Shown: positions 1,980 to 25,325 of the stretch, one piece after another
Numbering within the stretch: the first letter of the stretch is position 1
How the letters are laid out: each line of letters opens with the position of its first letter
From: a virus
Taxonomy: Duplodnaviria > Caudoviricetes
DNA length: 26,551 nucleotides
Virus record (IMG/VR): IMGVR_UViG_3300043640_000350
Location: 1 to 26,551 of that record
Reading direction: 5' to 3' (one strand)
The notes under the pieces: model-generated
Databases searched by the model: none
Told to the model about the DNA's origin: nothing
Seen by the model: only the letters and a program-made list of their open reading frames with translations
Translations under genes and position numbers: made by a program

Positions 1980-3383
1980 TTGGCCAGATTCTACGAACTG
2001 ACCAAACAGCGGACGATATCGTCGCTGGAGCGGGCAGCCGCCACCCTGGAGCGGTTGTCCAATAGCGAGGGCGTGAACCGCAACTGGCGGACGCTGGCAC
2101 GCGCGAAGCAACTGCCCCCGCCGGAGGAAGAACCCTGGCTCATCTGGATGCTGATGGCTGGGCGCGGGTTCGGCAAGACCTGGACCGGCGCGAACTGGAT
2201 CCTGGAACAGGCGCTCAAGCACCCAGACAGCGAATGGGCGATCATCGCCCCGACCTTCCGTGACGTGAGGAAGACCTGCATTGAAGAGTCGAGCGGGGTC
2301 CTGCACCACCTGCAGCCCGGGGAGCTTGTCAACTATCGTCGTAACGAGCTTCAGATCCAGCTGTCCAATGGTGCCACGATTTACGGCTACTCCGCCGACC
2401 AGCCGGAGCGAATTCGTGGCGCCAACCTTTGGGGTGCCTGGTGCGAGGAGCTTGGCTCGTGGCGATACGAGGAAACGTGGCACGAGGGGCTGATCCCGGC
2501 CCTGAGGAAGGGCGAGAAGCCCAGGGTCGTGGTGACCACGACGCCCCGTCCGACCAAGCTGATCAAGTTCCTGATGAAGCTGGACGATGGTTCAGTGTTC
2601 TATACCCGTGGGTCAACATGGGAAAACAAAGCAAACCTGAGTGAAGCCGCCCTCAAAGGTTTGGAAGCCCGGTACGGCGGGACCAGGCTGGGCAGGCAGG
2701 AACTGGAAGGTGAGCTACTTGAAGACATCGAAGGCGCGCTTTGGAAACGGTCCCAGATCGACGAGGATCGGCTGCGCCACCTCGACGACGTTCCGGACCT
2801 GGTGCGAGTGGTGGTGGGATTCGACCCGGCCGCCAGCACCAACGGCGATGAATATGGCATTGTCATATGCGGCATGGACGCACAGGGTCACGGATATGTG
2901 CTCGGGGATTTCAGTCTCCAGGGCAGCCCCAACACCGCGATCCGACGGGCCATCCAGGGACTGAACGCATTCAACGGTGACGTGATCGTCGGTGAGGCGA
3001 ACAACGGCGGCGACTGGATCGAGACGGGCATCCGGGCGATCAGTTCGGACGTGCCGTTTCGGTCGGTCCGGGCGACGCGCGGCAAACTGATCCGGGCCGA
3101 GCCCGTGTCGGCGCTGTATGAACAGCACCGGATTCATCACGTCGGCACGTTCGCCACGCTGGAAGACCAGATGTGCGACTGGACCCCGATCGACCTGGAC
3201 TCACCCGACCGGATGGATGCGCTTGTCTGGGCATTCACAGAAATGTTCCGCTTGGGCGGTGACACCTGGGCCGGGATGTACAAACACCTGACCTGCACCA
3301 AATGCGAGCGGTTGTTCGCCGTGGTCGAGGGGCGCGACTATTGCCCGCATTGCCGGAACACGATCCAAGGAGCCGTCGCATGA
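1980..3383 (+). CDS. terL: Terminase large subunit
   Basis: Walker A AGRGFGKT, Walker B-like AWCEE, coupling motif TTTP, RNase H-fold nuclease VVGFDPA...SPDRMDAL. Extra C-terminal CxxC..CxxC. Confidence 0.95.
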   Translation: MARFYELTKQRTISSLERAAATLERLSNSEGVNRNWRTLARAKQLPPPEEEPWLIWMLMAGRGFGKTWTGANWILEQALKHPDSEWAIIAPTFRDVRKTCIEESSGVLHHLQPGELVNYRRNELQIQLSNGATIYGYSADQPERIRGANLWGAWCEELGSWRYEETWHEGLIPALRKGEKPRVVVTTTPRPTKLIKFLMKLDDGSVFYTRGSTWENKANLSEAALKGLEARYGGTRLGRQELEGELLEDIEGALWKRSQIDEDRLRHLDDVPDLVRVVVGFDPAASTNGDEYGIVICGMDAQGHGYVLGDFSLQGSPNTAIRRAIQGLNAFNGDVIVGEANNGGDWIETGIRAISSDVPFRSVRATRGKLIRAEPVSALYEQHRIHHVGTFATLEDQMCDWTPIDLDSPDRMDALVWAFTEMFRLGGDTWAGMYKHLTCTKCERLFAVVEGRDYCPHCRNTIQGAVA

Positions 3384-7698: not shown

Positions 7699-7708
7699 CC
7701 CCCCAATG

Positions 7709-8091: not shown

Positions 8092-8359
8092 CGTCCACGG
8101 GCGGGCTCATGGCGTCGATGAGGGCGTCCACGAAGTCGGCCACGGGGCGCTCGGATTCGCGGTACTCGGCCCAGTCCTGGCCGAAACCCTCGGCGTCTGC
8201 CTCCACCTCGTCGGGGTTGGCGCCACGTCGGGCCAGCTCGTCGCGAACGCTGTCCTCCCATGCCTGCTGGTCGCTGCGCACCCGGCAGCCACTGACGTGA
8301 CTGTCGCGGTCCAGCGGGCCACCACACACGGTGCACAGGACTTCCTCGCCAGCGTTCAT
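8084..8359 (-). CDS. Hypothetical protein with CxxC-x6-H-x3-C motif
   Basis: ATGA overlap; CTVCGGPLDRDSHVSGC. Confidence 0.65.
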   Translation of the reverse strand: MNAGEEVLCTVCGGPLDRDSHVSGCRVRSDQQAWEDSVRDELARRGANPDEVEADAEGFGQDWAEYRESERPVADFVDALIDAMSPPVDGE

Positions 8360-8559
8360 CGGTCAGCGACCTTGGCCACGGGTCGGACGGCGTCGTAAGC
8401 GACGGTCAGGCTGTCCTTGCCGTGGGCCTTGCCGACCGCCGGGTCGGTGTTCAGGCCAGTCCAGGCCACGCCGTATGCGAACCCGAAGTCGTGGACCACG
8501 GTGCCGGTATGGGCGCCGTCGTGCTCGATGCACTCGACTCGCTGCCTGGTGTCCGCCAT
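8356..8559 (-). CDS. Hypothetical beta-rich (SH3-like?) protein (67 aa)
   Basis: ATG at 8559 with GAGGGAAGGA RBS, downstream of promoter copy 6. Confidence 0.6.
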   Translation of the reverse strand: MADTRQRVECIEHDGAHTGTVVHDFGFAYGVAWTGLNTDPAVGKAHGKDSLTVAYDAVRPVAKVADR

Positions 8560-8599
8560 TTGGGGGTTCCTTCCCTCGGTCTCGAACCTTACAAAACCC

Positions 8600-8628
8600 A
8601 TTCAATCACGGGTGTGCCCCCGTGTCAA
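8600..8628 (-). promoter_or_regulatory. Conserved island promoter motif, copy 6
   Basis: TTGACA-CGGG-GGCAC-ACCCGTGA-TTGAAT-GGGTTT; near-identical to copy 4. Confidence 0.65.
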
Positions 8629-8647
8629 CCACCCACGGGGGCACACC
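8611..8647. repeat. Perfect 14-bp inverted repeat overlapping promoter copy 6
   Basis: GGTGTGCCCCCGTG (8611-8624), 9-nt loop, CACGGGGGCACACC (8634-8647). Confidence 0.85.
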
Positions 8648-8660
8648 TTCGGTGAACCTG

Positions 8661-9026
8661 TCAGGCGCCGTGGTCAAGGGTCTCGCGGTCGATCTGAACC
8701 GAGTCGCCGCGACCGGCGACCCGGAGCTGGCGGCCGTCCTCGGTGAAAGCGACTTCGTAGATGTGACCGTCCTCGGTGACCAGGCGGGCCTTGGTGACCA
8801 CCTTGTCGAGTTCGTTTTCGGTGGTGGTCTCGCCCTCGCCGCCGTCCTCCTCGGCTCTGGCCAGCGTGCGGGTGAGTCGGTTCAGGAACTCCTCGTCCTC
8901 GTGTTCGACGACGAGGTACGCGTTTTCGCGCCAGCCCAGCTCAGCGGCCGTGCTGGCAGCATCGTCGCGATTCTCCAGCGGTACGGCTTCGGTCGGGTTG
9001 TCGGCGTTCACCAGAGCGAGTGCCAT
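8661..9026 (-). CDS. Acidic hypothetical protein (121 aa)
   Basis: ATG at 9026 with AGGAAGGA RBS. Confidence 0.7.
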   Translation of the reverse strand: MALALVNADNPTEAVPLENRDDAASTAAELGWRENAYLVVEHEDEEFLNRLTRTLARAEEDGGEGETTTENELDKVVTKARLVTEDGHIYEVAFTEDGRQLRVAGRGDSVQIDRETLDHGA

Positions 9027-9049
9027 CGTGAACCGTCCTTCCTGTAGAG

Positions 9050-9081
9050 AAAAGGGTGGGGCCACCAGTCCAGCCCCACCC
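9050..9081 (-). terminator. Putative intrinsic terminator
   Basis: Minus strand GGGTGGGGC-N10-GCCCCACCC-TTTTCTCT, downstream of the 9110-9535 gene. Confidence 0.6.
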
Positions 9082-9109
9082 CCAGACGAGCACAAGGTTT
9101 GCCCGTTCG

Positions 9110-9535
9110 TCAAGTTCCATCTTCCTCCAGCGGCCAGGCCAGCCGGAACAGCCGGACGATCTGCAGCGCCTTGGTCCGGTACCGGTCGCGAGTCGCCTCG
9201 GTAAGGACGTGGGTCCACCAGTCCTCGAAGTCGATGACCGTCTCTCCGAAGTCGACCAACTGCTGAGCGGACAGGGTCCGGGCCGCCTGCTCGATCATGG
9301 TGACCAGGTTCGAGTCGTGGAACTTGATCCGGCGTAGCTCGTCGAGCAGGAACGCCCGGCAGACGGCACAGCCATTCATCGCGGCCTGGACTGCCGCCGG
9401 GGTGGATGCGTTCGTGTATTCAGCCTTGTGGCGGACGGCATGGATGGCATCGACGCGGATGATCTCGTTCATCACGAACAGCTCGGCGCCGGACAGGTCC
9501 TTCTCGTTCAGCTCGATGTCCTCGAATGCGCTCAC
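9110..9535 (-). CDS. Hypothetical helical protein (141 aa)
   Basis: GTGA overlap with the upstream gene, GGAG RBS; contains a CxxC. Confidence 0.7.
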   Translation of the reverse strand: MSAFEDIELNEKDLSGAELFVMNEIIRVDAIHAVRHKAEYTNASTPAAVQAAMNGCAVCRAFLLDELRRIKFHDSNLVTMIEQAARTLSAQQLVDFGETVIDFEDWWTHVLTEATRDRYRTKALQIVRLFRLAWPLEEDGT

Positions 9536-9720
9536 AGAGAACTCCGGTTCGGTAGGGCGGACAGGTCGGCGATCTCGTGATCGGCCTGCTCGAAGCTGAT
9601 CACGTCGTTGCGCAGGTGAGCCTGAAAAATGTCGGACATCAAGTCACCAAACTTGCGGGTGACCAGTTCGGCCAAGCGTTCGAGCTGGTCGGCGGTCGCG
9701 GCGTGCACGGTCATGGTCAC
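9532..9720 (-). CDS. Hypothetical protein (62 aa)
   Basis: GTG at 9720 with AGAGGGGA RBS, downstream of promoter copy 7. Confidence 0.6.
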   Translation of the reverse strand: MTMTVHAATADQLERLAELVTRKFGDLMSDIFQAHLRNDVISFEQADHEIADLSALPNRSSL

Positions 9721-9747
9721 GGGTCCATCCCCTCTGGGTCTGGGGCC

Positions 9748-9777
9748 AGCCAACACCCGTCCGTGCCTCGGTGTCAA
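9748..9777 (-). promoter_or_regulatory. Conserved island promoter motif, copy 7
   Basis: TTGACA-CCGA-GGCAC-GGACGGGTG-TTGGCT-GG. Confidence 0.6.
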
Positions 9778-9882
9778 CCATGCGCCGATGGCCGGTCTCG
9801 GCCGGGGGGTGTTTTACTTGGGGACAAGCGCGGCGGCCCGACCTGGCAGGTGGCCCGCCCACACAGGCCGGAGGCCGATCGC

Positions 9883-12800
9883 TTGAGCAAGCGCGGGATC
9901 GTAGCGGGCAGCAGTGCGACAGGACCGAAGGGTGGGACGTCAAGCCAGCCGAACACGCTGGGAAATGACGGAGGAATATCGCCGCTGCTGGCCCAGTATC
10001 AGCAGTGGACCATCGGATCCGGGAACACGTACGACCCGCTGCCCAGGTCGGCGGCCGAGTTCCTGCTGGGACAGTTCGGGCCACTGTCGCCCATCCAGCC
10101 GATGCCTATCGACGCGCCCCAGGGCGACCTGCACCGACCGGAGCCACGCAGGTTCCAGTACCCGGTCGGCTGGAACATGCCGCACAGCCCCCCGGGCACC
10201 GAGGGACTCAAGCTCACCGATTTCCCCACGCTGCGCACGTACGCGGACCTGTACTCGGTGGCCAGGTCCTGCATCCAGGTGCGCAAGAACGAGATCCGTG
10301 GCATCGAGTGGGACATCATCCCCACCAAAGAAGCCGAAAAGAAGATGCGCGGCGATGTCAAGGCGCACCAGGATTTTGGCGAACGCCGCGATAAGGTCCT
10401 GAAGTTCTTCAAGAAGCCGGACCCGGACTACCGCAATTTCTCAAGCTGGATCGACGCCCTGCTCGAAGACCATTTCGTGGTCGACGCGATGAGCCTGTAC
10501 GTTCACCCCAGCCGGGTCAAAGGAAAGGGCGTGCTTGGGTCGGACCTGGCCGCCCTGGAGATCATCGACGGGACGACCATCCGGCCGCTGCTGAACTTGC
10601 AGGGTGGCAAGCCCGCCCCGCCGTCCCCTGGATACCAGCAGTATCTGCAGGGCATCCCCCGGGTGGACCTGCTGACCTTGCTGACCGGCGAGGATATCAA
10701 GGATCTGGACAAACCCGCCCGTGAATACCGGGGCGACCAGCTGCTGTATCTGCCGTACACGGCCCGGTCCTGGACTCCGTACGGTTTCCCGGCGGTCGAA
10801 CGCACCATCGTGCCGATCCTGACCGGACTGCGCAGGCAGCAGTTCCAGCTCGACTATTTCGACGAGGGCACGCTACCGGGTGCGTACGTGAGCCCCGGCG
10901 AGAACAGCGGCTGGACCCCGAACCAAGTCCAGGAAATGCAGAACGGGCTGAACGCCATCGCTGGCGACCCGGCTTGGAAGCACAAGGTCATCGCCTTGCC
11001 GCCCGGCTCCAAGGTCGACCCCCAGCGGCCGGTAGAGCTGGCCAGCCAGTTCGACGAACTCACCATGAACATGGTTTGCATGGGTTTCGACGTGCAACCC
11101 CAAGAACTGGGCATCACGCCCAAGGCCAATTCCGGGACCATGGGCGGCAGTGCCCAGATGGCACAGGCCAGCGAGGACACCCAGGAACGCAAGGCCACCA
11201 AACCCCTGCTGTGGTGGCTTAAGACCTCGATCTTCGACGAGATCATCCAACAGACCCTCCAGCAGGAGGATATGCAGTTCATCTTCGAGGGTCTGGAGGA
11301 GGGCGAGGACGAGGCCACCAAGACAGAGGTTCTGACCAACCAGATCAAGACGGCTCTGCTATCGATCGACGAGGGTCGGGCCGAGCTGGGCAAGTCTCCC
11401 TGGGGTCTGCCGGAGACGTCCGACCCGGGTATCATGACGGCCAGCGGGTTCACCCCGCTCGGGCAGTACAACCCGATGACCGAGCAGCCGGGACCGCAAC
11501 CTGGCGAGCCGGATCCCAACGCACCGCCACCCGGCAGTCCGCCACCACCCGGGGCGCCACCTGGCACTCCGCCATCTCCCCCGACCATCCAGACCATCGG
11601 CCCAGGCAACAAGCCGCCAGCCCCCCCGCCGGGCACTGAGGCCGCCGAGGCAGGGGAAAAGGCCAAACCGGCGGCCAAGAAGCCAGCGGCCGGAGTGAAG
11701 GCCAAGGCCACCAAGGGCGAATTCATCGTCTCGGCCGAGGATGTCTCGCTCCTCAAACCGACGCTGGCCGAGCTGGACATGCTGGCGCGCCACCTGAACA
11801 AGGGCCGGGACCTGGACACATGGGAGTGCAGGTTCATCACCAAGAACCACCTGGACCTGATCGACCAGATGTTGAGTCTGGGCCAGCAGCCGTCCGACGT
11901 GATCGAGCGCCTGTCCACGCACGTGGAGAAGACGTGGAACGTGGTGTACGACGAGTCCAAGCACCCGCGCGGTGCTGGCGGACAGTTCGGCCAGACCAAC
12001 ACCGGGATATACGCGGGCAGCGAGAACGGCGCCATCGCGGTTCACTACAGCGGCAAGGCGCCACCGAAGGGTGCGGGCAAGAAGCCCAAGAAGAAGCCCA
12101 AGAAGGACGGCAAGAAGAAGCCCAAGAAGGGTGGCTCGACCAGTAACGCCCAAGCCGGGCCGATGACGATCAAGCCGGACAAGCCTGGTTCACCGGCGGC
12201 TGCCCAGCCCAAGACGCGTTTGCAGACTCAGCAGGAAGCGATGGCCAAGCTGCCACCGCCCAAAGCAAACGACCCGGTGGCTTGGGAGAACTACGATGAA
12301 TGGTACAACCAGTCTTCCGGTAAACACGACGGACAGCCAGACGTCGTAAAGGTCGGACCGAAGGGATATATTCACGGCTGGATCAAGGTCGAGGGTGGCA
12401 GCGACCATCCGCTGCTCGGTAACCACGATCCGAACCAGCGAGCCGCCGACGTGTGGTCCACCAACAAGGAAGCGATGGGCGCGGTGCGGCAGGCCGCCCG
12501 TAACAAGGCAGACGGGCGGCCGTGGCACGAGAACGCGGATGGCGCCGACCTGCGCAACGAGCCCGATTTTGTTGAGGGCGGTAGCGTTTATGGCGCCGGT
12601 GGCGACAAGTTCAGCGGCGAGGATTGGGAACATGAGGTCGCCTCGGCTGCCAGCCACCTGAACGAGTGGATGGGGCAGCAGAAACCGACAGGTGGCCCGC
12701 TGTACCGAGGCATGATGGTCACCCCGCCGGACGAGGATTCGACCGTTGAGGACATGTTCCCGCCCGGCATGGTGTTCGCCCATGACGTCAGTTCCTGGAC

Positions 12801-13056
12801 ACCTCAGGAAGACCAGGCGGTCGACTACGCGACGGCCAGCATGTACGACGACGATGAATACGCGTCGCCGGTAAAGCTGGTCATGCAGGACGGCTACGGC
12901 GTCGACATCGACCGGTTCAAGGCGGACAGCGCTTCGACCAAGGGCGACGGTGAGACGCTGTCCGGCGGCAAATTCGAGGTGGTCAGCGCCGAATGGGACG
13001 AGGACGACGAAGACGGTCCCTTGGTCGTTGTCGTGAAGAGAGTTGGTGACGCGTGA
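9883..13056 (+). CDS. Portal protein with long C-terminal extension ending in an ADP-ribosyltransferase-like domain (1057 aa)
   Basis: GGAGG RBS (9870-9874) and TTG at 9883. HK97-type portal motifs (IIDGTTIRP, PYGFPAVE, CMGFDVQPQELG, LSIDEGRAELG), then a Pro-rich linker, HPRxxGGQF, a Lys-rich tract, the KVGPKGYIHGW tag and LYRG..SSWT..DGE. Confidence 0.88.
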   Translation: MSKRGIVAGSSATGPKGGTSSQPNTLGNDGGISPLLAQYQQWTIGSGNTYDPLPRSAAEFLLGQFGPLSPIQPMPIDAPQGDLHRPEPRRFQYPVGWNMPHSPPGTEGLKLTDFPTLRTYADLYSVARSCIQVRKNEIRGIEWDIIPTKEAEKKMRGDVKAHQDFGERRDKVLKFFKKPDPDYRNFSSWIDALLEDHFVVDAMSLYVHPSRVKGKGVLGSDLAALEIIDGTTIRPLLNLQGGKPAPPSPGYQQYLQGIPRVDLLTLLTGEDIKDLDKPAREYRGDQLLYLPYTARSWTPYGFPAVERTIVPILTGLRRQQFQLDYFDEGTLPGAYVSPGENSGWTPNQVQEMQNGLNAIAGDPAWKHKVIALPPGSKVDPQRPVELASQFDELTMNMVCMGFDVQPQELGITPKANSGTMGGSAQMAQASEDTQERKATKPLLWWLKTSIFDEIIQQTLQQEDMQFIFEGLEEGEDEATKTEVLTNQIKTALLSIDEGRAELGKSPWGLPETSDPGIMTASGFTPLGQYNPMTEQPGPQPGEPDPNAPPPGSPPPPGAPPGTPPSPPTIQTIGPGNKPPAPPPGTEAAEAGEKAKPAAKKPAAGVKAKATKGEFIVSAEDVSLLKPTLAELDMLARHLNKGRDLDTWECRFITKNHLDLIDQMLSLGQQPSDVIERLSTHVEKTWNVVYDESKHPRGAGGQFGQTNTGIYAGSENGAIAVHYSGKAPPKGAGKKPKKKPKKDGKKKPKKGGSTSNAQAGPMTIKPDKPGSPAAAQPKTRLQTQQEAMAKLPPPKANDPVAWENYDEWYNQSSGKHDGQPDVVKVGPKGYIHGWIKVEGGSDHPLLGNHDPNQRAADVWSTNKEAMGAVRQAARNKADGRPWHENADGADLRNEPDFVEGGSVYGAGGDKFSGEDWEHEVASAASHLNEWMGQQKPTGGPLYRGMMVTPPDEDSTVEDMFPPGMVFAHDVSSWTPQEDQAVDYATASMYDDDEYASPVKLVMQDGYGVDIDRFKADSASTKGDGETLSGGKFEVVSAEWDEDDEDGPLVVVVKRVGDA
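12349..12384 (+). repeat. Shared coding tag, copy 1 (KVGPKGYIHGWI)
   Basis: Same peptide recurs at 14580, 15749 and 16696 with synonymous divergence. Confidence 0.95.
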
Positions 13057-15320
13057 CCAGCAAGGCCGTACGGGACGCCATCCAGGCGGCGATGGACCAA
13101 CCGCTGGCCCGGCCCAAAAAGAAGCGCAAAGCGACCAAATCGGGCGTCCCTCATACCGCCGATACCCCGAGCGACGAAGCGATAGCCGAACGGGGCCGGG
13201 AATACTGGCGAACCCACGTGGCCTGGGGACATCCGGGCGACTTCATGGAGTGCGTCCGGGGCGTGATGGAGCACGCCGGGATGTCCGAAGCCAACGCCAA
13301 GGGCTATTGCAACCTGCGTCACCACGAGGTTACCGGTGAATACGCTGGCCGGGGTGCCCACAAGTTCGTGGACGCCACTGTCCTGAAGATGGTCGAAGTC
13401 GAGATCGGGAAGACGGTGCCGGGTGAACGAGCTGAACACAAACCGCCGGGTTTTGGCACTCCACGGGACAATCGGCGACGGTTCCGGGCTGGCGTGGGAA
13501 AACCAGGGGTTCACGGTGGGTTTTCGCCCGGTGAACGGGACCACGAACCCCTGCAAGTGGGTTCCGAGCACGACCTGAACGACGTCGACATGGACGTTGT
13601 GGAAAACCGTCGGCACCGTGCCCCGGGCGAGGATGGACACAACCCCAACGAGGCCGGGGACGGCATTCCCGCCGATACCAATGACCCACGGGAGAACAGT
13701 CAGCACGTGGTGGCCGACGCCATTCACGACCATGAGAACGGTAGCGACATCGGGAGCGGGAATCTCCCAAAAGCGCTGGGCCCTGGGCGGGCTACGAGGG
13801 ACTTCCCGGGATGGCGGTATGACCAAGCGCTGGCGATTCACTACAGCCGGACGCTGGCCGCCTGCGGTGTTCTGGTCGACACCGAGGCAATAGCCGACCA
13901 GTGGCTGAGAGCCAACAAGGCCGAGGGGCAGACCCCGCCAGGCGGTGACCCAAAGCCCTGGGTCGCGGCGCAGGTGGCCCGCTGGTCGGTATCGTTGCGG
14001 CAAATGTTGAACGAACTCTGGCGTGAGGGCTGGTTCCTCGGTGCCAAATCGGGCCGAGCGGTGGTGGCCGCGAAAGACCCGGATTGGGGCGATTGGTCCC
14101 CCGGCAACCCGACCGCCGCCCGGATCGTACGAACATCCAAGGACCTGAGACGCTGGCTCAACACGTACGGCGTCGCTACCATCCGGTCGATCGAAGACAA
14201 CCGGATGAACGAGCTGGCCAAGGCGCTGCACCTGTCGTTGAAGGAGGGCTGGGCATCCGACACGCTGGCTCGTTACATTGAGAACATTCTGATAAACCCA
14301 AACAGGGCTCGGATGATCGCCCGTACCGAAACGGCCAGGGCGGTCAGCCAGGGCACGTTGTCCGAGTATCGGCACGCGGACGTCGGCCGGGTTCAGTGGG
14401 TCACCGCCGACGACACCACGGTCTGCGTCCCCTGCGACGCGAACGAGGCGATGGGCGCCATCCCCACGGGTTCGGTCTTCGGTGGCACGAGTACCGACGC
14501 CCCCCCTGGTCACCCGAATTGTCGTTGTGCAATAATCGCCGTGCCGGACGGCATGGAGGTCCCGCCCCGTGCGGTCACCAAGGTCGGCCCCAAAGGATAC
14601 GTCCACGGATGGATCTTTGTGGGGGCGCCGGGTGTCGGAGGCCGAGTGTTCCATCCGCACCACGGACACGGCACGGTGGCCGAACACCGTGGTGATTCGG
14701 CATCGGTTCATTTCGACGGGGGGCATAAGGCCGAATTCGTTACCGGTCATCACAACGGTTCTGCCCGAATTGAGAGAGTTCCTGGACTGTCCGGCGACGA
14801 AGCGTTCGAATCGGTACCCAGATTCCATCGGAGAAAGCTCACTGACGAACAGGATGAGGCACTCGACCTGTACACCAGGAGCGGCTATGTTCCGATCAAC
14901 AAGCATTTGCGGCACGGGGCAGCCGCCAGCGACGAGGACAAATCAACGATCCGGGAACTCGACGGATTGTTCGATTTGGTGCCAGCGCTGGAACGCCCGA
15001 TCGAAGTGCACCGGGGATTCCGGGATGCGGACACGGTATTTGGCGCCTCCGGCAGCAAAGTTGGCGAGACGTTCGTTGACAAAGCCTTTGCTAGTTCCAC
15101 TACCGACCGGTCGATCACGGTCGGGTTCACTCATGGACCGACGCCCGGGGTTGTTACCAAAATTCACGTACCAGCGGGAAGGAAGGCCATCCGGCCGAGC
15201 GTCAGCCTGGATTATTTCGCTGGGGAACACGAAGTACTGCTACCCCGGGAGACGCGGTTCCGGGTGATCAGTGACAACGGCGAGGGCAGCGACCGAGTCA
15301 TCGAGCTGGAGGTCTTGTGA
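13053..15320 (+). CDS. MuF / SPP1 gp7-like minor head protein with C-terminal VIP2-type ADP-ribosyltransferase
   Basis: RARMIARTETARA, WVTADD..VCVPC and PPGHPNCRC (MuF). YT..GY..IN..LR, VHRG, FASST and EHEVLLPR (R-S-E ART). Confidence 0.92.
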   Translation: MTSKAVRDAIQAAMDQPLARPKKKRKATKSGVPHTADTPSDEAIAERGREYWRTHVAWGHPGDFMECVRGVMEHAGMSEANAKGYCNLRHHEVTGEYAGRGAHKFVDATVLKMVEVEIGKTVPGERAEHKPPGFGTPRDNRRRFRAGVGKPGVHGGFSPGERDHEPLQVGSEHDLNDVDMDVVENRRHRAPGEDGHNPNEAGDGIPADTNDPRENSQHVVADAIHDHENGSDIGSGNLPKALGPGRATRDFPGWRYDQALAIHYSRTLAACGVLVDTEAIADQWLRANKAEGQTPPGGDPKPWVAAQVARWSVSLRQMLNELWREGWFLGAKSGRAVVAAKDPDWGDWSPGNPTAARIVRTSKDLRRWLNTYGVATIRSIEDNRMNELAKALHLSLKEGWASDTLARYIENILINPNRARMIARTETARAVSQGTLSEYRHADVGRVQWVTADDTTVCVPCDANEAMGAIPTGSVFGGTSTDAPPGHPNCRCAIIAVPDGMEVPPRAVTKVGPKGYVHGWIFVGAPGVGGRVFHPHHGHGTVAEHRGDSASVHFDGGHKAEFVTGHHNGSARIERVPGLSGDEAFESVPRFHRRKLTDEQDEALDLYTRSGYVPINKHLRHGAAASDEDKSTIRELDGLFDLVPALERPIEVHRGFRDADTVFGASGSKVGETFVDKAFASSTTDRSITVGFTHGPTPGVVTKIHVPAGRKAIRPSVSLDYFAGEHEVLLPRETRFRVISDNGEGSDRVIELEVL
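14580..14729 (+). repeat. Shared tag plus Tudor-like module, copy 2
   Basis: KVGPKGYVHGWIFVGAPGVGGRVFHPHHGHGTVAEHRGDSASVHFDGGHK. Confidence 0.95.
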
Positions 15321-16609
15321 CCGAGAACATGGTCTGGTCTCCTGACGATGTCGTCTGGGAAACAGGCGACGTCATCAAGTTCAGCCCGGGGGCGGTTCAC
15401 GACAAACTGTCGGGTCACTATCCGGACAAGGTGCTGGGTTGGGTCAGGGACGCCAAATGGTCCAGCCCCGAGGACGTCCCGCTCAAGCAGATCGACATGG
15501 CGCGGCGTCCCGGCGGCCGAGACATGAAGAAGGTTCGCGGGATGGCGCGGGCCATCAAGGACGGCAAGAAGATGGACCCGATCTTCCTGGTCGAGACTCC
15601 AGGCGACGGTCCGTACGTGATTGCCGACGGATACCACCGGGCATTGGCCCATCAGCACGCCGGTAAACCGACCATCAGTGCCCACGTCGGCGTTGTCGAC
15701 GACGAGGACGGACCTTGGGACCGGGCGATGCACGACGCCAAGCTGAACAAGGTCGGGCCCAAGGGCTACGAGCACAATTGGGTATTCGTTGGCGTGCCTG
15801 GCGCTGGCGGCCGGGTGTTTCACCCCCACCACGGGCACGGCACAGTGAACGAACACCGAGGCGACTCGGTATCAGTTCATTTCGACTCGGGCCACAAGGC
15901 CGACTTCGCTGCTGGTCACGGCCACGGCGAACCGAAGCTGCAGCCCAGACCGGAGCATTTCGACGATAGTTCGTTCAGCACGGCTCCGAATTGGAAACGT
16001 GTGGAAATCCGGGGTGGCAAGCCAGGGAAGATGGTTTACCAGGCTGGTCAGCGCGTACCGGAGGGTCTACCGACCGAGCTGGTCACGGAGACTCGCCGGA
16101 TGACGTTCGGCGGTATCCATAGCCGGGTTTCCAAGATACTCAGGTCTGGCCGGGTTCCGACCGACGACGACACGACCACGATGAATACCGGTACGATCGC
16201 TGAGTACCCGGTGTCTCTGGGCGATGTGGTTCGCAAAATGGATCAGGCGATCGAGCGCGGCCAGTTGTCCGAGGATACCGAGCTTTGGCGTACGATGCAG
16301 CTCACAGGTACCGAGGTGGGCGAGTTTGTGCCCGGGTTCGAATACGGCGATTTGGCGTACACCTCGACGGCCATGCAACGTTCAGGGGCGCAGCTGGTGG
16401 CCGACGCCAAGCACAAACACCAGAAGAAGACCGGGACACTGGATCCGGGCAAACAATGGGCGATGTTTCGTATCCTGGCCCGAAAAGGCCAGCACGTCAC
16501 GTATGCGGACACCCACAACAAAATCCGGGAGATCATACTGCCCAGGGGGAGCAAATTCCGGGTGGTCGACGTGGCACAGGACGGGACGATATCGGTGGTG
16601 CTGTCGTGA
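15317..16609 (+). CDS. ParB/Srx-like domain fused to an ADP-ribosyltransferase-like domain
   Basis: DPIFLV...YVIADGYHRALA (ParB/Srx). LWRT, AYTST and IREIILPRGSKFRV (ART). GTGA overlap. Confidence 0.85.
   Translation: MTENMVWSPDDVVWETGDVIKFSPGAVHDKLSGHYPDKVLGWVRDAKWSSPEDVPLKQIDMARRPGGRDMKKVRGMARAIKDGKKMDPIFLVETPGDGPYVIADGYHRALAHQHAGKPTISAHVGVVDDEDGPWDRAMHDAKLNKVGPKGYEHNWVFVGVPGAGGRVFHPHHGHGTVNEHRGDSVSVHFDSGHKADFAAGHGHGEPKLQPRPEHFDDSSFSTAPNWKRVEIRGGKPGKMVYQAGQRVPEGLPTELVTETRRMTFGGIHSRVSKILRSGRVPTDDDTTTMNTGTIAEYPVSLGDVVRKMDQAIERGQLSEDTELWRTMQLTGTEVGEFVPGFEYGDLAYTSTAMQRSGAQLVADAKHKHQKKTGTLDPGKQWAMFRILARKGQHVTYADTHNKIREIILPRGSKFRVVDVAQDGTISVVLS
15749..15898 (+). repeat. Shared tag plus Tudor-like module, copy 3
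   Basis: KVGPKGYEHNWVFVGVPGAGGRVFHPHHGHGTVNEHRGDSVSVHFDSGHK. Confidence 0.95.
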
Positions 16610-18081
16610 ACGAAGAAGACCAGCGCATCCAGGCCGCGTCCGACCGACTGACCGGGCAGTTTTCGGACTTGGTAGAAATTGGCACGAAGGTTGAAAAAGT
16701 CGGACCAAAGGGATATATCCACGGTTGGATCTTCGTCGGACCGGAAGCCCCCGGGGGGCGGGTCTTCCACCACAGTCACGGTCACGGCACGGTGGCCAGC
16801 CACGATCGGCCCGAGGGCGGCGAGCACGGCCAGGTGCAGGTTCATTTCGACTCGGGCCACAAGGAGACGTACCGGGCCAGGTTCAAGCCGAGCAGCAAAC
16901 CACGCCTGTACGGGCCGGTCGAGCCGGACCAGCCAAAACCGAAACTGAAGCCCGCGCGTACCAAGCCCGGAGCGCCGGACGTACCGGACGCGCCAAAGCC
17001 CCCCGGAGGGCTGGAATACCAGGGCATGAAGGTATTCCAGGACGGCAAACGGATCGGGCTGGTGTTCGGCCCGGACAGCAAGGGCAAATTCCACTACCAG
17101 GACGAGGACGGCGCGAACGCCAGGCGCTTTGGCTCGTTCGACAAGGCTGCCCTGGCGTTGCAGGCCGCGAATAAAACCCGGGCAGAAGAACACCAGAAGG
17201 CCCTGGATGAGGCGGAACGTATAAAGCAGCAACACGATCACGCGTTGCTGCTGGCCGAGAAGCACATCTTTGGACCACGACGTGACGCGTTCACCAATGT
17301 GCGGTCCAAGTCGGCCACTCAGGCGGCCAAGATAAAAGCGCGCAGAAAGCGCATCGTCGACATGTACGGAAAGAACCTGAAGATTCACGAGGATCCAGGC
17401 ACCTCCGTGGTCGACAAGCACATGAGAGAGTTTTTCTCGATTCCCGAGTCGCACCACAAGATCATTGCCGCTCAGGGATACCGGATCGACGTCGGAACCG
17501 AGACCGTGGAGGACTATCACCCCGAGCTGGCAGGGGCAAAACCCGGTGGATACACCGAGGGCACTTCCTTCCGGGACAGCGCTGGGGCGCATCAATCGGG
17601 ATCCAGTACCACCCAGCCCTGGATGGTCTTCGGGAACACGGTGGGGCATGGCAGCCATGCGATGGTGCCGCACGAATTGGGCCACGCGCTCGATGCTTCA
17701 CTGGGGAGCGACGGTTCCTATTTCTCAGACCAGCGCCAATCGCCCTGGGGCGGGGGGTTCATGTCGTACTTCAACGGTTTGAACGATTACGACAAGGAAA
17801 AACTGGCTGGCAGTTTCCAGGATTTCAGTGATCCGACAAACAGTTCGTACATTCCGTTGGCGCCGTATTATCGGGACACGACCCATGGCGGTCACGGCAA
17901 CGGAAATGTGGAAATGTTCGCGGAGGCATACAGCGCGTATGTCACCTCGCCCAAGCCCAAACGAGCCGAGGCCGTCAGCCGGACGCTCAAGAGCGGCGTG
18001 TTCGATGGCGATGATCACGTGGGGAAGATGCTGACCGAGTACTTCGATGACCTGACTGAATGGCTGGAGGCCAACGGATGA
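16606..18081 (+). CDS. Tagged protein with C-terminal HExxH zinc metallopeptidase (491 aa)
   Basis: GTGA overlap at 16606. VPHELGHALD (His codons at 17671 and 17683) and EMFAEAY (17911) give the lethal-factor-like zincin pattern. Confidence 0.85.
   Translation: MNEEDQRIQAASDRLTGQFSDLVEIGTKVEKVGPKGYIHGWIFVGPEAPGGRVFHHSHGHGTVASHDRPEGGEHGQVQVHFDSGHKETYRARFKPSSKPRLYGPVEPDQPKPKLKPARTKPGAPDVPDAPKPPGGLEYQGMKVFQDGKRIGLVFGPDSKGKFHYQDEDGANARRFGSFDKAALALQAANKTRAEEHQKALDEAERIKQQHDHALLLAEKHIFGPRRDAFTNVRSKSATQAAKIKARRKRIVDMYGKNLKIHEDPGTSVVDKHMREFFSIPESHHKIIAAQGYRIDVGTETVEDYHPELAGAKPGGYTEGTSFRDSAGAHQSGSSTTQPWMVFGNTVGHGSHAMVPHELGHALDASLGSDGSYFSDQRQSPWGGGFMSYFNGLNDYDKEKLAGSFQDFSDPTNSSYIPLAPYYRDTTHGGHGNGNVEMFAEAYSAYVTSPKPKRAEAVSRTLKSGVFDGDDHVGKMLTEYFDDLTEWLEANG
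16696..16863 (+). repeat. Shared tag plus Tudor-like module, copy 4
   Basis: KVGPKGYIHGWIFVGPEAPGGRVFHHSHGHGTVASHDRPEGGEHGQVQVHFDSGHK. Confidence 0.95.
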
Positions 18082-18251
18082 GGCCCACCAAGAACCCGGA
18101 CGGCAGCCTCACTGTGCCAGCCGCGATGTACAGCCCCGATGGGCTGACCCAGGGCGACGGCGTGGTCACGCTGAACCCGGGCGACGAAATGTACGACTCC
18201 TGGTCCGAGTGGATCCAGATTCGTGACCGGCACGCTCCCAAGGGGGACTGA
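18078..18251 (+). CDS. 57-aa hypothetical protein coupled to the peptidase gene
   Basis: ATGA overlap and GGAGG RBS. Confidence 0.7.
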   Translation: MRPTKNPDGSLTVPAAMYSPDGLTQGDGVVTLNPGDEMYDSWSEWIQIRDRHAPKGD

Positions 18252-18254
18252 CCG

Positions 18255-18632
18255 ATGCCAGTCGGTATTCTCACTTTGCCGTGGGACCTGAAACTGCCAC
18301 GAGGTGGCCAGCAGAGCATCAAGTTTGCCATGAAGCTGGCCAACGGAATCGCGCCGTATCCGGTCGTGGGCAAATCGTTCAAATACGTCATTCGGACCGA
18401 CCCGACCGAGGACGGTGTTCCTCTGGTCGGTATAACCGAGGCGCTGACCTCGCAAGGACAGCTCACCGTCGATACGGTGAAATCGACGGTCACCATGTCG
18501 ATCTTGGCAGCCGCGACGGCCGACCTGACCCCCGGGGTTTATTACCACGCCTTGTGGATGGACCCCCTGATGTCTACCCAGTTCGACTGGTTCGTCGGTA
18601 AGTTCATCCTCGAACCCGCTTCACAGCCATAA
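18255..18632 (+). CDS. Beta-sandwich virion adaptor-like protein (putative)
   Basis: AAGGGGGA RBS; TADLTPGVYYHAL...GKFILEP pattern resembles BppU-N-like proteins. Confidence 0.55.
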   Translation: MPVGILTLPWDLKLPRGGQQSIKFAMKLANGIAPYPVVGKSFKYVIRTDPTEDGVPLVGITEALTSQGQLTVDTVKSTVTMSILAAATADLTPGVYYHALWMDPLMSTQFDWFVGKFILEPASQP

Positions 18633-18642
18633 AGGAGCTGAC

Positions 18643-19263
18643 ATGCCGTTCTCCACCCTCGGTCTGAACAAGATGCTGGAGGGTCTGGAAGTCGCCACTT
18701 CCATGATCGCGTTCGCCAGCCTCCACACTTCGTACAGTGCCACCGGCACGCCCGGCGAGCTTACCGGCGGGTCGCCTGCGTACGCTCGTAAGGCGATCAC
18801 CTGGGCCACGGCCTCGACCGGTTCCAAGGCCGCGAACGGCACGCTGCCCACTTTCGACATTCCGCCGTCCACCACGGTCGCGTTCGTCGGCTTGTGGAGC
18901 CTGGTTACGGGCGGCACGTTCGCCGGGATGGGCGCCAACGGCGGTGCCACCCAGTTCGCGTTCACCTGTACGCTGGCCAGCCCTGGCAGTTTCACCGCTC
19001 CGGGCAGTTCCTACTCAGTGAATGACACGGTCGTGTTGTTCCCCGGTGTGGGGGCGACACTGCCGACCGGAACCACGGCGGGCACGGTTTACTACGTCGG
19101 CACCGTAACGGGAGCCGTGTTCACCCTGTCCACCACTTTGGCCAACGCCAACCCGGTGAATACCAGCACAGTCGGTGCCGGAATCGTTCAGAAGGTCACC
19201 ACCGAGACGTTCAACGCCCAGGGCACGTTCACGCTGTCCGCCGATACCCTGACCGTCGTCTGA
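18643..19263 (+). CDS. Virion structural protein (fibre/decoration-associated)
   Basis: AAAGGAG RBS; T/G/A-rich; ASLHT..G..GE.TGG..YARK..W pattern seen in phage fibre-associated proteins. Confidence 0.65.
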   Translation: MPFSTLGLNKMLEGLEVATSMIAFASLHTSYSATGTPGELTGGSPAYARKAITWATASTGSKAANGTLPTFDIPPSTTVAFVGLWSLVTGGTFAGMGANGGATQFAFTCTLASPGSFTAPGSSYSVNDTVVLFPGVGATLPTGTTAGTVYYVGTVTGAVFTLSTTLANANPVNTSTVGAGIVQKVTTETFNAQGTFTLSADTLTVV

Positions 19264-19267
19264 TCCG

Positions 19268-21369: not shown

Positions 21370-23418
21370 ATGGCGACCACTGTGGACGGAGTCCAGAGCA
21401 CGGCCACCTTCAGTTTCCCCATCACCCGCAAGGAATACACCCCGGACGGGGACTTGCTGGTATTCGGCAAGGCGACAGATGGCACAGTCGACTCCGACAA
21501 CCAGATCGTCGACCCCGAATGGTCCGGCAAGGCCCTACAGGAGTGGCTCGCCACGGGCGGCAATGTCCGGGTCCAGCACAGCCCCCACCTTTATCCGGCG
21601 GGTAAAGGCGTAGAGGTCGTTGTTGGCAAGGACGGCGCCCATTGGGTCCGTTCCATGATCGTCGAGTCCACGGCCAAGAACCTGGTCGAAAAGGGTGTTC
21701 TGACCTCCTACTCGGTCGGTATCGCTCGCCCCCAGATCGTGCGTTCTTATGAGGCTCCGGGCGGCAAGATCGTCGGTGGGATCATCGCCGAGTTGTCCCT
21801 GGTCGACCGGCCAGCAAACAAAAACTGCGCGTTTGAACTTTGCAAGTCCGCTGTCGACGGCCAGATCGAGTTCGTCGGCAAGATGCACACGTTCACCGAG
21901 ATCGACGGCCAGAAATCCGAGGACGGTATGCCGACTTTCACCCCCAAAGACCTGGCCAACGTGGTCAACAAGCGAGAAGCAGCCGCCGACCTGTCCAAGG
22001 GAGCGAAGGATTGCCCCAACTGCGGATCCAGCTTCGACGCGGACAGCAGCTTGCGCTCCTGCTCCGATTGCGGAACCAAGCTGCCCAAGGGCGACAAGGC
22101 AGCCGACGCCGATCTGGAAGAGCGCGAGGACGCCGACCTCGAAAAGGGCAGCATGCCCCCACAGTTCGCGGCGAACGCCAAGAAGAAGACCGACGGCGAC
22201 GAGGAAGACGACGACTCCGAATCGTCCGACTCGGACAAACCCGCATTCCTGACGGGAAAGTCGGCTCAGCCCACCGACGGCGTAAAGGCCAAGGACAGCA
22301 AGCCCCTGCCGCGTCACCGCGAGCCGGATGGCGGCCAGGTGGCAGCACTGGAGAGCGACGCGGGTCTGGGCACCGAGGGCGAAGGTGCCAGCGACGGGCT
22401 GCCCAACGGCATTTGGTCCGAAAACCGTGGATCCAACACCCCGGACACGATGAAGTCCGCCAGCTACTCGGTGAACCGACTGCACGATGCCCTGTGCTCG
22501 GCGTACCACATCGACGACATCATGGGCGAATACCCCACGATGAAGGGCCTTGTAGGCGCCATGAACGACGCCTGGGCCGACCTGGACACTGAGACCCGCC
22601 AGATCGTCAAGGGCGTCGGTGAGGCCGCCAGCATGGACGGTACCAACACCGACACGATGATCCTGGACGAGGCACGGGCGACCCTGTCCAAGTCGTTCGG
22701 CGAGATGTATCCGAACGTGCACGTCACGCCCGGCAAGATCACTGCCGGGCAGTTCACCCGGCCGTACCTGTCGGCGGGCCACCCCCAGCTCTCCATCCAG
22801 GGTCCGGCTCACATGCCGGGACCGGGCGACGCCAGCTTCGGGTCGACCCAGACGATGCGGGACGCCAGCCAGTTCAACCGGTCCAACATCACCGCCGGGC
22901 ACGCCTCGACCAGCCCCGGTTCGGCCGGTAACAACGGCAACTCGATCCCCGGATCCCGTCCGGCGGGTCCCCGGCTGGCGGCGGCGGCCAAGGCACAGGC
23001 CGCGAACGCGATGCGGGTACTGCACGACCACCTGGCTGCCAATCACCCGTACCTTTGCCCGATGTCCCCGGGCACTCCCGCACAGATCGGCGCAGTGGCC
23101 AAGGCCAGCACCACGGCGGAGACGGCCGAACTGCGCGGTCTGGTGGAGAAGCAGGCGGGCGAACTCAGCGAACTTCGGGCGATGGTCGACCAGCTCGGCT
23201 CTCAGCCCGACCCAAACGTCGCTCCCCATCGGGGAGTGGTCACCAAATCCGCCTCTGGTGGAACCGGGCCAGCGGACCGGCGGTCCCTGGTCGAAGAGGC
23301 ACTGACAGCAGAAGATCGGGAACGGGCGAAGTTCTACGGAGCTATCGCCGCGAGTGGAGATGCCGGGTTGCGGGAAGCAGCACAGCGAGTTCTCCGTAAC
23401 CAGACACCCACGAACTGA
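21370..23418 (+). CDS. HK97-type prohead protease fused to a scaffold-like region
   Basis: VDSDNQIVD, VRVQH, YSVG and ELSLVDRPAN motifs; then a CxxC..CxxC ribbon, acidic low-complexity sequence and a C-terminal coiled coil. Lies directly before the capsid gene. Confidence 0.88.
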   Translation: MATTVDGVQSTATFSFPITRKEYTPDGDLLVFGKATDGTVDSDNQIVDPEWSGKALQEWLATGGNVRVQHSPHLYPAGKGVEVVVGKDGAHWVRSMIVESTAKNLVEKGVLTSYSVGIARPQIVRSYEAPGGKIVGGIIAELSLVDRPANKNCAFELCKSAVDGQIEFVGKMHTFTEIDGQKSEDGMPTFTPKDLANVVNKREAAADLSKGAKDCPNCGSSFDADSSLRSCSDCGTKLPKGDKAADADLEEREDADLEKGSMPPQFAANAKKKTDGDEEDDDSESSDSDKPAFLTGKSAQPTDGVKAKDSKPLPRHREPDGGQVAALESDAGLGTEGEGASDGLPNGIWSENRGSNTPDTMKSASYSVNRLHDALCSAYHIDDIMGEYPTMKGLVGAMNDAWADLDTETRQIVKGVGEAASMDGTNTDTMILDEARATLSKSFGEMYPNVHVTPGKITAGQFTRPYLSAGHPQLSIQGPAHMPGPGDASFGSTQTMRDASQFNRSNITAGHASTSPGSAGNNGNSIPGSRPAGPRLAAAAKAQAANAMRVLHDHLAANHPYLCPMSPGTPAQIGAVAKASTTAETAELRGLVEKQAGELSELRAMVDQLGSQPDPNVAPHRGVVTKSASGGTGPADRRSLVEEALTAEDRERAKFYGAIAASGDAGLREAAQRVLRNQTPTN

Positions 23419-23450: not shown

Positions 23451-25325
23451 ATGCAGGTGGCCGAGATCGTGGACACCAGCGCCAATCCGGCTGGCGGCAC
23501 TGCCGTAGCCGACGAGGCGAAGTGGTACAACAGCGCGGGCGACATGCTCACGAACCGGCTCCCCGAGCTGGTCAAGGGCGCGGGTTTTGCCCGTCCGGGC
23601 GGCAATCAGCCGCTCACCGACGAGAAAGAGATCCTGGACCGCGCGTTCCTCGCCAACAAGGCGATCAAGGCGTCGGTGACCAAGTCTCACACCGACCCGC
23701 AGTCGGTCGTGGCCGGGATCAACCCCGCGTTCTCCAGTCAGTTCGGGGCGTTCACCGCCGCGATGGGGATGCCGGGCCAGAACCCGATGAAGCAGATGAC
23801 CGACCAGGTCTCGACGATCCTGTCCGAGGCGCTCGGCAAGAACATCACCCTGAACTCGCCGCTGGCGGGTTCGGCGCTCGGGTCGGCTGGTTTCGTGCCC
23901 TACGACCTGGTCAGCCCCTCGCGGCTCATCTACCCGGTCTACAGCCCGCTGCGGAACAAGATTCCGCGTGTGCCGGGCCAGGGCACCAGCCGCCAGGCCA
24001 AGGTCGTCACCGGCATCTCCGGTTCGGGTACGGGCAGCGCCGGTCAGTTCATCGACATCAGCTCCGCCGAGACCACCCCGCAGTCCAACAACTACGGCAC
24101 GAACATGCCGGGCACTACGGGCAGCCAGTCGGCCACCCAGATCAACGTGCCGTACAAGTTCTTCGCGCTGTCCGAGTCCCTGTCGTGGCTGGCCCAGTTC
24201 TCGGGTCAGGGCTTCGAGGACATCTCGGCGCTGGCGAACCTGATCCTCCTTCAGGAGTTCATGCTGAACGAGGAAGCGGCGATGATCGCGGGTACCACGA
24301 CCGCCATCGCCGCTCCCACCACGGCCGTCACGCTGGCCCTGCGCACCGCCGGGGCGAACGAGACCGGTCTGCCCGCATCGTCCCACTTCTGGGTCACGGT
24401 CACCGCTGCGAACTATTTCGGCGAGACCGTGATGAACACCCAGTCGGCCGACCTCGGCGCCGTTCTGGGCACCCAGGTCATCGACGTCACGCTGCCCCAG
24501 AACCTGCCCGCCGGGGCGATGTTCTGGAACGTTTACGTGAACAACCAGGCCGCCGGTGCCCCGACCCAGTCCACCATGTACCGGTATGCCACCGGCATCG
24601 GCGGACGTCGGCTCACCGTTCAGGGTCCGACCATTCCCAACTCGGTGACCCCGGCGACGCCGAATCCGCCGGTCACGGCCGGACCGACCAACGGCGCAAA
24701 CCGGATCACCGGCATCATCCCGACCCTTGCGGGTCAGGACACCGGCGCCGGTTACCCGACGGGCGTCGGCTGGCAGGCCGGGTACTACAACCCGAACGTC
24801 GGGACGCACCTGACGTACAACAGCGTCTACCAGATGCTGAACGGGTTGTGGAACGGCGACCCCAAGTACGGCAACGTGGGTGGCGCGTTCAAGGCCGACC
24901 CGTCCGAGCTGATCGGTAACAGCACGGATATCATGAACCTGTCCAACGACGTGCTGCAGGTCGGTGCCGCGACCAACTACCGGCTCACGGTCGAGCAGGG
25001 CGACACCTCCGGGGTTCGCATCGGTGCGGCCGTCAGTGAGTTCCAGAACCCGGTCACCCGGTCGGTTCTGAAGCTCCTGGTTCACCCGTGGTGGCCTCAG
25101 GGCACGGTCGCGGGCATGTCCTACTCGCTCCCGTTCTCTTGGTCCAACATCTCCAACGTCTGGGAGATGACCATGGTCCAGGACTACCTGAGCATCTCTT
25201 GGCCCGTTATCGACCCGACGTTCCGCTACTCGATGTTCATGTACGGCGCCCTGGTCTGCAACGCCCCCCAGTACTGCGGGCTCATGCAGGGCATCCAGGC
25301 GTCTGACCTGACCCCCTTCGCGTGA
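23451..25325 (+). CDS. Major capsid protein with internal beta-sandwich insertion
   Basis: AGGAAGG RBS, position after protease, strong codon bias. YDL..P..LIYP..SPLRNKIPRV and EEAAMIAG are HK97-fold MCP-like, ending GALVCNAPQYCG..QGI. Confidence 0.85.
   Translation: MQVAEIVDTSANPAGGTAVADEAKWYNSAGDMLTNRLPELVKGAGFARPGGNQPLTDEKEILDRAFLANKAIKASVTKSHTDPQSVVAGINPAFSSQFGAFTAAMGMPGQNPMKQMTDQVSTILSEALGKNITLNSPLAGSALGSAGFVPYDLVSPSRLIYPVYSPLRNKIPRVPGQGTSRQAKVVTGISGSGTGSAGQFIDISSAETTPQSNNYGTNMPGTTGSQSATQINVPYKFFALSESLSWLAQFSGQGFEDISALANLILLQEFMLNEEAAMIAGTTTAIAAPTTAVTLALRTAGANETGLPASSHFWVTVTAANYFGETVMNTQSADLGAVLGTQVIDVTLPQNLPAGAMFWNVYVNNQAAGAPTQSTMYRYATGIGGRRLTVQGPTIPNSVTPATPNPPVTAGPTNGANRITGIIPTLAGQDTGAGYPTGVGWQAGYYNPNVGTHLTYNSVYQMLNGLWNGDPKYGNVGGAFKADPSELIGNSTDIMNLSNDVLQVGAATNYRLTVEQGDTSGVRIGAAVSEFQNPVTRSVLKLLVHPWWPQGTVAGMSYSLPFSWSNISNVWEMTMVQDYLSISWPVIDPTFRYSMFMYGALVCNAPQYCGLMQGIQASDLTPFA

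Follow-up and report, generated by a model that had tools for sequence, protein, structure and literature searches.

What does the same short peptide do in four consecutive genes of a phage head module? The 26.5-kb virus record IMGVR_UViG_3300043640_000350 (26,551 nucleotides, all of which we refer to as the window) holds genes for a terminase, a portal, a MuF protein, a prohead protease/scaffold, and a capsid-like protein, and we took the phage to be of a soil type. The peptide VGPKGY[IVE]H[GN]W, here called the tag, occurs in the window four times, once each in the portal, MuF, ParB-like, and stand-alone genes, always on the plus strand. Each copy lies between a tripeptide and an enzyme domain, the tripeptide matches those found in the phage's own protease/scaffold and capsid leader, and the tag is conserved as a peptide across phages with different head types. 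These features are consistent with a tag that is exposed by the prohead protease and may then act on the fate of the enzyme behind it.

Four head-module genes carry one peptide ahead of different enzymes

The tagged genes and their parts, including domains of the ADP-ribosyltransferase (ART) type, are as follows.

9883..13056, plus strand: portal with a long C-terminal extension, 1057 aa, TTG start, GGAGG upstream (PF04860, E 2.7e-8; phrog_2662, E 1.6e-47)
12343..12390, plus strand: predicted protease site V-V-K (12343-12351) and tag copy 1 (12352-12390), from sequence
12352..13053, plus strand: predicted released unit 1, 234 aa, tag and ART-like domain with LYRG, SWT, and a single Glu in DGET (ESM Atlas, motifs)
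13053..15320, plus strand: MuF-domain gene, 755 aa, with a phrog_6439 domain (E 1.6e-9), MuF (about 14211-14537; PF04233, E 1.2e-11), and cargo
14574..14621, plus strand: predicted protease site V-T-K (14574-14582) and tag copy 2 (14583-14621), from sequence
14631..14747, plus strand: Tudor domain of the UvrD/PcrA C-terminal type after tag 2 (PDB 7egt, E 4.8e-6; AlphaFold strands at 21-54)
14829..15317, plus strand: ADP-ribosyltransferase domain with an R-S-ExE signature (VHRG, SST, GEHEV; PF03496, E 3e-15)
15317..16609, plus strand: ParB-like domain (about 15467-15706), site, tag, Tudor, and ART-like domain (PF02195, precomputed; TIGR00180, E 9e-4)
15743..15790, plus strand: predicted protease site L-N-K (15743-15751) and tag copy 3 (15752-15790), from sequence, followed by Tudor (about 15800-15916)
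16606..18081, plus strand: stand-alone cargo gene, 491 aa, with a 31-aa leader, site, tag, Tudor, and HExxH metallopeptidase (HELGH, 17671-17685; phrog_4415, E 3.2e-7)
16690..16737, plus strand: predicted protease site V-E-K (16690-16698) and tag copy 4 (16699-16737), from sequence

An earlier note on this DNA had placed K-VGPKGY[IVE]H[GN]W at 12349, 14580, 15749, and 16696. We recovered all four matches and no further one in six frames, against a chance expectation of 8e-10 matches for the motif in the window. The VGPKGY[IVE]H[GN]W part of that description stands, but the leading lysine is better read as the end of a protease-type tripeptide. The tag is 10 to 13 residues long, and its core has the form aromatic-x-H-G-W-hydrophobic. 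It is the peptide rather than the DNA that is conserved, as the note had also claimed; pairs of copies in the window differ at 3 to 6 synonymous codons of 11 and at 0 to 2 residues, and 23 to 29 of 33 nt are identical. The GTGA overlaps said to couple the four genes are present at 13053, 15317, and 16606, and the peptidase gene is in turn coupled, by an ATGA at 18078, to a 57-aa open reading frame (ORF).

Pfam, PHROG, and ESM matches agree with the description of the cargoes as three ART-like domains and one HExxH peptidase. The portal cargo, which has no Pfam match and no Tudor domain, scores 0.95 to ADPrib_exo_Tox clusters in the ESM Atlas. The ParB cargo is ART-like at 0.96 by ESM features, with a weak match to PF03496 (E 0.018), and the peptidase of the stand-alone gene matches PF07737 at E 0.001 to 0.005, below the cut-off. 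A full ExE is present only in the MuF ART, the portal and ParB cargoes keeping a single Glu. The ParB-like gene has an ambiguous start, either GTG at 15317 (430 aa) or ATG at 15329 (426 aa, as on the record), and the N terminus of the MuF gene contains a small His/Cys domain (phrog_6439, window 13180-13360).

In copies 2 to 4, the common sequence extends about 40 residues past the tag as the Tudor domain, a continuation that the earlier note had overlooked. We looked for signs that the tag is a strand of an ordinary known domain and found that it is not. Pfam and NCBIfam profiles gave no match to the tag. We rejected this reading, as the Tudor profile match begins only at profile position 17-18 and a Tudor domain follows only 57 of 204 tags. 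In an AlphaFold model, residues 1-5 and 7-9 fall below pLDDT 50, and the strands and fold lie at residues 21-54.

The tripeptide before the tag follows the head type

Two further genes of the window bear on the origin of the tripeptide.

21370..23418, plus strand: prohead protease (N-terminal ~175 aa; invariant H70, S115, and E141) fused to scaffold (family alignment)
23451..25325, plus strand: major-capsid-like protein, 624 residues (phrog_13692, E 3e-62, an unnamed family), probably the capsid judging from gene order and size

Of 211 contexts with upstream sequence, 123 have K immediately before the tag, 75 have L, 6 R, 5 F, and 2 another residue. Tags therefore directly follow K, L, F, or R in 209 of 211 contexts, and I, V, or L stands three residues back in 192 of 211. 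The pre-tag residue is uniform within a phage and tracks the head module. We merged loci that came from one contig or had a common context, which left 57 groups; 6 of these were untyped, and the 51 typed groups showed no mismatch. Hydrophobic-x-K was found in 21 of 21 K-type groups, which have the protease, portal, and capsid type of the window, and [IVL][DEN][LF] (ending in L or F) in 30 of 30 groups with Mu-like portals and proteases. Sixty new metagenome loci gave the same picture, as all ten that could be typed agree with their head type; one of them, L227, was scored as mixed solely from a tag at the locus edge. For the x-x-R type, two of three loci have genes for HK97-like proteases, and each of these proteases contains nine x-x-R sites. 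No column before the Lys of the site reaches 50%.

Because the same tripeptides fill each phage's own protease/scaffold, they are likely to be prohead-protease sites. The window protease/scaffold contains 13 hydrophobic-x-K-small sites where 3.9 are expected. When the tags are masked, 14 K-type protease/scaffolds contain 175 such sites (59 expected) and 4 L-sites (7.8 expected), and 23 L-type protease/scaffolds contain 87 L-sites (13.1 expected) and 23 K-sites (25.5 expected). Portals show a mild enrichment (83 sites, 58.5 expected). The window capsid has three K-type sites (K42, K78, and K130), all in the first 130 of its 624 residues, and K-type capsids have a leader of 130 to 150 residues with a conserved K at its end; L-type capsids have neither a leader nor sites. 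By sequence enrichment, a three-residue motif is common to cargo, scaffold, and capsid leader.

Of 13 members of the K-type protease family, 10 match the phrog_80 head maturation protease (best E 2.9e-10) and 5 match S78; of 21 L-type members, 4 match a head maturation protease. Both families keep an invariant His and Ser, and they are not alignable by profile (probability 1.3%). No solved structural relative of the capsid or of either protease was found, and literature searches did not confirm Lys-specific capsid processing in Listeria phage A511, which plays no part in the argument. With the tripeptides following the protease type in this way, we consider it likely that the cargo is cut at the site before the tag, and the tripeptide would then predict the protease specificity of each phage. 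Ala-ending tripeptides (VEA, FRA, and VSA at P0033, P0043, P0051, and P0056) possibly represent a fourth protease specificity.

Distribution of the tag

A DNA pattern for the tag peptide found 80 stretches (78 loci) in viral contigs and 118 stretches in metagenomes, and a 32-column profile of site plus tag matched 510 protein clusters (50% identity clusters). A whole-genome search of ten genomes gave 20, 2, 3, 20, 2, 6, 2, 2, 2, and 1 copies, on one strand in each, and its reversed control gave 0. Wherever the context is readable, the tag is confined to head-gene regions, and its recurrence beside head genes ahead of variable C-terminal domains, which the earlier note had proposed looking for, was found in many phages. 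The 85 non-redundant tagged ORFs include 9 family matches to portal, 4 to MuF, and 2 to prohead protease, along with 18 of the ART type, 3 PI3/4-kinase-like, and 2 each for zeta toxin, NUDIX, and 2H; 47 have no Pfam match. Larger tagged proteins add NADAR, helicase-methylase, and hydrolase domains (17 of the proteins listed were scanned).

In prokaryote genomes, a loose pattern found 87 loci, 6 of which (on 5 contigs) lie beside head genes in assemblies labeled Streptosporangiaceae or Mycobacterium (Actinomycetota). The remaining loci have neither head genes nor the site and mostly short ORFs or none; we read them as chance and rejected the tag as a feature of cellular proteins. One tagged protein is named from a Trebonia assembly, and one tagged relative is classed as a provirus. 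The hosts of tagged phages are likely Actinomycetota, though assembly binning is no proof of this. A search of isolated phages for the exact VGPKGY form returned none, only six weak unrelated matches.

Several variations were seen among the tagged loci. Two phages have 20 tags each over 32 and 55 kb (L012, L018, L043, and relatives G001 and G004). In 24 of 212 tags, the sequence is a variant ending in C-x-x-P-P-C, which suggests a hairpin stapled by a disulfide or by Zn. The tagged gene at L284:11912-13267 has head-tail connector-like genes around it; it is situated downstream of the capsid gene and outside the portal-protease interval. A segment resembling ribosome modulation factor (PF04957, near the cut-off) stands directly ahead of the site and tag at L001:6448-8835 and L053:8003-10219, and the tagged portal polyproteins P0125 and P0187 have intein-like segments (PF14890, below the cut-off).

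When the tag may act

We propose that each cargo is built as a carrier or cap, a protease site, a tag, and an enzyme. The prohead protease of the phage would cut after hydrophobic-x-Lys inside the assembling head, and cutting would free four enzymes that each start with the tag. Once exposed, the tag would serve as a retention and ejection signal that keeps the enzymes in the head and sends them with the DNA into the next cell, where the ART, NUDIX, 2H, zeta-kinase, and peptidase cargoes may target the host or its defences soon after infection begins, much as T4 Alt does. We consider it likely that the cargo is packaged into the head, through fusion in the case of portal, MuF, and protease cargo and through site plus tag in the case of stand-alone cargo. 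That the tag itself is a retention and ejection signal with a role after cutting is a reading to which we give about an even chance on the present sequence evidence.

Three observations suggest that the role falls after cutting. Tags are present on cargo that is already fused to the portal, MuF, or protease. Two to four tags are carried by 27 of 178 tagged ORFs, as if every released unit needed its own. Finally, the cap is kept even when it is the bare site; the shortest leaders are the site alone, at 3 to 4 residues (M-T-K, M-I-D-L, M-I-E-L, and M-D-L), and the tag never directly follows the start Met in the contexts examined. Since the tag stays constant while the protease, portal, capsid, and most tail proteins change, whatever reads it is likely common to all of these phages. 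The reader is likely to be the packaged DNA, other tags through self-assembly, or a generic portal-tail channel, rather than one conserved phage protein. A comparison of the tail regions of ten genomes for a shared tail protein gave few cross-type BLAST matches among those listed, mainly to tape-measure-like ORFs, a weak result from BLAST only.

Several points weigh against this proposal. About three phage lineages underlie the covariation of tripeptide and head type; the Fisher P of 9e-15 therefore overstates it, and the 51 typed groups are not independent events. Four of 123 tags follow Ala-ending tripeptides that are not tied to any protease, and two metagenome tags follow AGP and VEM. Val at tag position 1 was built into the search patterns, which makes its frequency partly a product of construction, and the tag has no confident structure in the AlphaFold model. 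In 13 of 14 cases from a wider family, a site of the matching type precedes the core [YWF]-x-H-[GN]-W-[IV] by 3 to 14 residues (random 0.22), and this spacing implies that an exact free N-terminal Val is not required. Two of the three ART-like cargoes, those of the portal and ParB genes, have no full ExE. Stand-alone genes with a 3-residue leader also need a route of entry, which points to a role before cutting as well.

That last point is central to the strongest alternative, in which the tag is an encapsidation signal. Before the cut, the tag would bind scaffold, protease, or tagged proteins and draw cargo into the prohead, in a manner resembling the capsid targeting sequence of T4 except that the tag is left on the cargo. 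Stand-alone genes with leaders of 3 to 8 residues show no other evident targeting sequence, and most tagged ORFs are not fused to a recognized head protein, both of which fit this idea. Pure encapsidation fits poorly, however, with tags on cargo that rides on the portal, MuF, or protease and with the multi-tag polyproteins, and head modules with non-aligning proteases carry the same tag. We consider encapsidation the less probable account, at roughly one chance in four in our judgment, although it would be compatible with a retention and ejection signal if the tags self-assemble.

A second alternative moves the action into the newly infected cell, where the tag could be an address label or a timed degradation signal that maturation uncovers. 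A removable cap that is kept even when it is only the site would suit this, and the genome matches beside head genes all fall in Actinomycetota-labeled assemblies, so that one host factor could read the tag. Yet the tag heads enzymes with differing expected targets (ARTs, NUDIX, 2H, zeta kinase, NADAR, and helicase-methylase), and in the 57 of 204 cases noted above it is followed by a separate Tudor domain; we find a host-side role improbable. It is less probable still that the tag only aids cutting, by displaying the site or by giving the protease a prime-side contact. The direct contact of tag and site in 209 of 211 contexts would be expected from such an aid, but the sites of scaffold and capsid have no tag, three protease types with different P1 residues have the same tag, and the spacing between site and core in the wider family varies between 3 and 14 residues. 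Retention of the repeat as DNA microhomology for swapping cargo cassettes, akin to the recombination anchor suggested in the earlier note, is very improbable as the selected role and at most a by-product, for despite the 23 to 29 of 33 nt shared in the window and the highly mosaic downstream cargo, synonymous sites are heavily diverged (45 to 56% of same-residue codon pairs differ) and no tag DNA is shared: in each of two 20-tag genomes, none of the 171 pairs among the 19 tags compared is identical.

If the retention and ejection reading is right, its consequences reach beyond this phage. How head proteins are selected for ejection is largely open, as the T4 work covers entry into the head and not exit, and a tag on each released unit, common to phages with unrelated heads, would be a mutable handle on the ejection step. 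The tag also marks cargo by sequence, so the 47 of 85 tagged proteins unmatched in Pfam become candidate early-infection or counter-defence effectors. A stronger version of the idea, that the tag is a portable ejection signal switched on by head maturation and sufficient to take any small protein out by way of the tail across unrelated head and tail machines, is one that we put forward only tentatively and think rather unlikely.

The Tudor domain after the tag

The Tudor domain after tags 2 to 4 matches the C-terminal Tudor of UvrD (the 7egt match given above), and Foldseek with the Tudor model returned 7egt and 7egs, UvrD Tudor complexes with UvrB and RNA polymerase, as its top two hits, none at E<=0.001. 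The domain is a Tudor beta-barrel with an HPxxGxG motif, and at least 90% of 30 aligned copies retain the His of that motif. The UvrD/PcrA C-terminal Tudor binds RNA polymerase and UvrB (PMC5397179, PMC8318588), and RNA polymerase binding needs the surface residues H681, W684, K712, and L714 (PMC5397179). On this face of the phage Tudor, only the His is clearly kept. The aromatic three residues after it is mostly His or Leu, unlike in UvrD/PcrA, and the last two residues are not covered by the alignment. By analogy, the Tudor might dock some cargo on host RNA polymerase or UvrB, which we regard as a doubtful possibility; ARTs could in this way be directed to transcription, in the manner of T4 Alt.

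Relation to known head-carried proteins

The closest precedent for protease-processed head proteins that are ejected comes from T4 (PMC9026906, PMC7411985), in which the gp21 protease cuts scaffold, capsid, and internal proteins after a short motif (PMC9026906). Like the cargoes described here, the T4 internal proteins IPI-III and Alt have a propeptide ending in a three-residue protease motif (L/I-x-E in T4) common to scaffold and capsid, and the enzymes that T4 carries in its head and ejects with the DNA include an ADP-ribosyltransferase. In T4, however, the signal precedes the cut and is removed, whereas the tag follows the predicted cut and would stay. The leader may also be the site alone, and copies of the tag turn up within fusions to portal, MuF, and protease in unrelated head types, neither of which resembles T4.

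Iyer et al. (2017, PMC5512222; 2022, PMC9503650) described effector fusions in head modules, among them polyvalent proteins, in which ART, metallopeptidase, ParB-like, NUDIX, and 2H domains are joined to MuF, portal, or capsid protease, and they predicted that such polyvalent or portal- and MuF-fused effectors are packaged and then injected. The window resembles these systems in that its diverse effector domains are either joined to portal-terminase head genes or encoded next to them. Unlike here, the accessible text of those two papers names no common linker peptide or prohead-protease site and suggests autoproteolysis by metallopeptidase domains, and their supplementary alignments could contain the tag within an unnamed domain. 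MuF polymorphic toxins (Jamet et al. 2017, PMC5576092) likewise combine a MuF N terminus with a variable C-terminal ART in a gene directly after the portal, and the available main text of that paper does not use the words 'motif' or 'cleav'. The window departs from them in having no small (<150 aa) ORF directly downstream of muf, where the 430-aa ParB-ART gene lies instead, and in extending the cargo logic to three further carriers; a 57-aa ORF follows the fourth gene only.

Eleven Streptomyces phages (Marky, Microdon, and nine relatives) have an L-type protease that is 52 to 55% identical, and a large gene between their MuF-position gene and the protease contains two divergent tag cores, one of them after L-D-F. 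In Marky, this gene encodes an ART. These phages differ in having no VGPKG half, and the second core does not adjoin a matching site. Isolated Streptomyces griseus phages with a related core would be a practical system for laboratory tests. Proteins encoded between portal and protease are present in particles of mycobacteriophage Patience (PMC4324244), which is a precedent for gene position only. A search of the phage literature, with most subscription papers outside it, found no description of the tag or of such a signal. Head-carried ARTs, MuF toxins, and portal-fused effectors are already known; the tag is real and widespread, and it appears to be undescribed in print.

Other tags and neighboring genes

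The tag may not be the only one of its kind. Cutting would yield two pieces of the portal tail with different tags, one of them marked by V-E-K then HPR..G.F (window 11923-12340).

11923..11988, plus strand: second site-plus-tag in the portal tail, V-E-K then HPR..G.F, heading a Lys-rich segment, from sequence

Several other phages also have HPR..G.F a short distance (a few residues) downstream of K-, L-, or R-type sites, and a literature search on it returned only unrelated listings. In the isolated L-type phage Mwe-JY05 (L299:2199-8741), the repeat RYVRT..GA.RYG.PI follows V-E-L in two head-module proteins and is probably another tag. If the stronger reading of a portable ejection signal were correct, the tag, HPR..G.F, and similar tags would form a general phage protein-delivery code.

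The remaining genes of the window are untagged.

1980..3383, plus strand: terminase large subunit (PF03237, E 9e-24; PF17289), in the head module of a tailed phage
18078..18251, plus strand: 57-aa ORF, ATGA-coupled to the peptidase gene, with no family match (ORF and profile search), a possible candidate antidote

Three genes without tags (125, 206, and 681 aa) occupy 18255-21313 between the cargo block and the protease; one matches the phrog_240 head protein and one is Ser/Thr/Gly-rich and fibre-like. Between the terminase and the portal, 3400-9800 contains about 6 kb of small genes, mostly on the minus strand, with a DUF6011 gene at 6490-7407.

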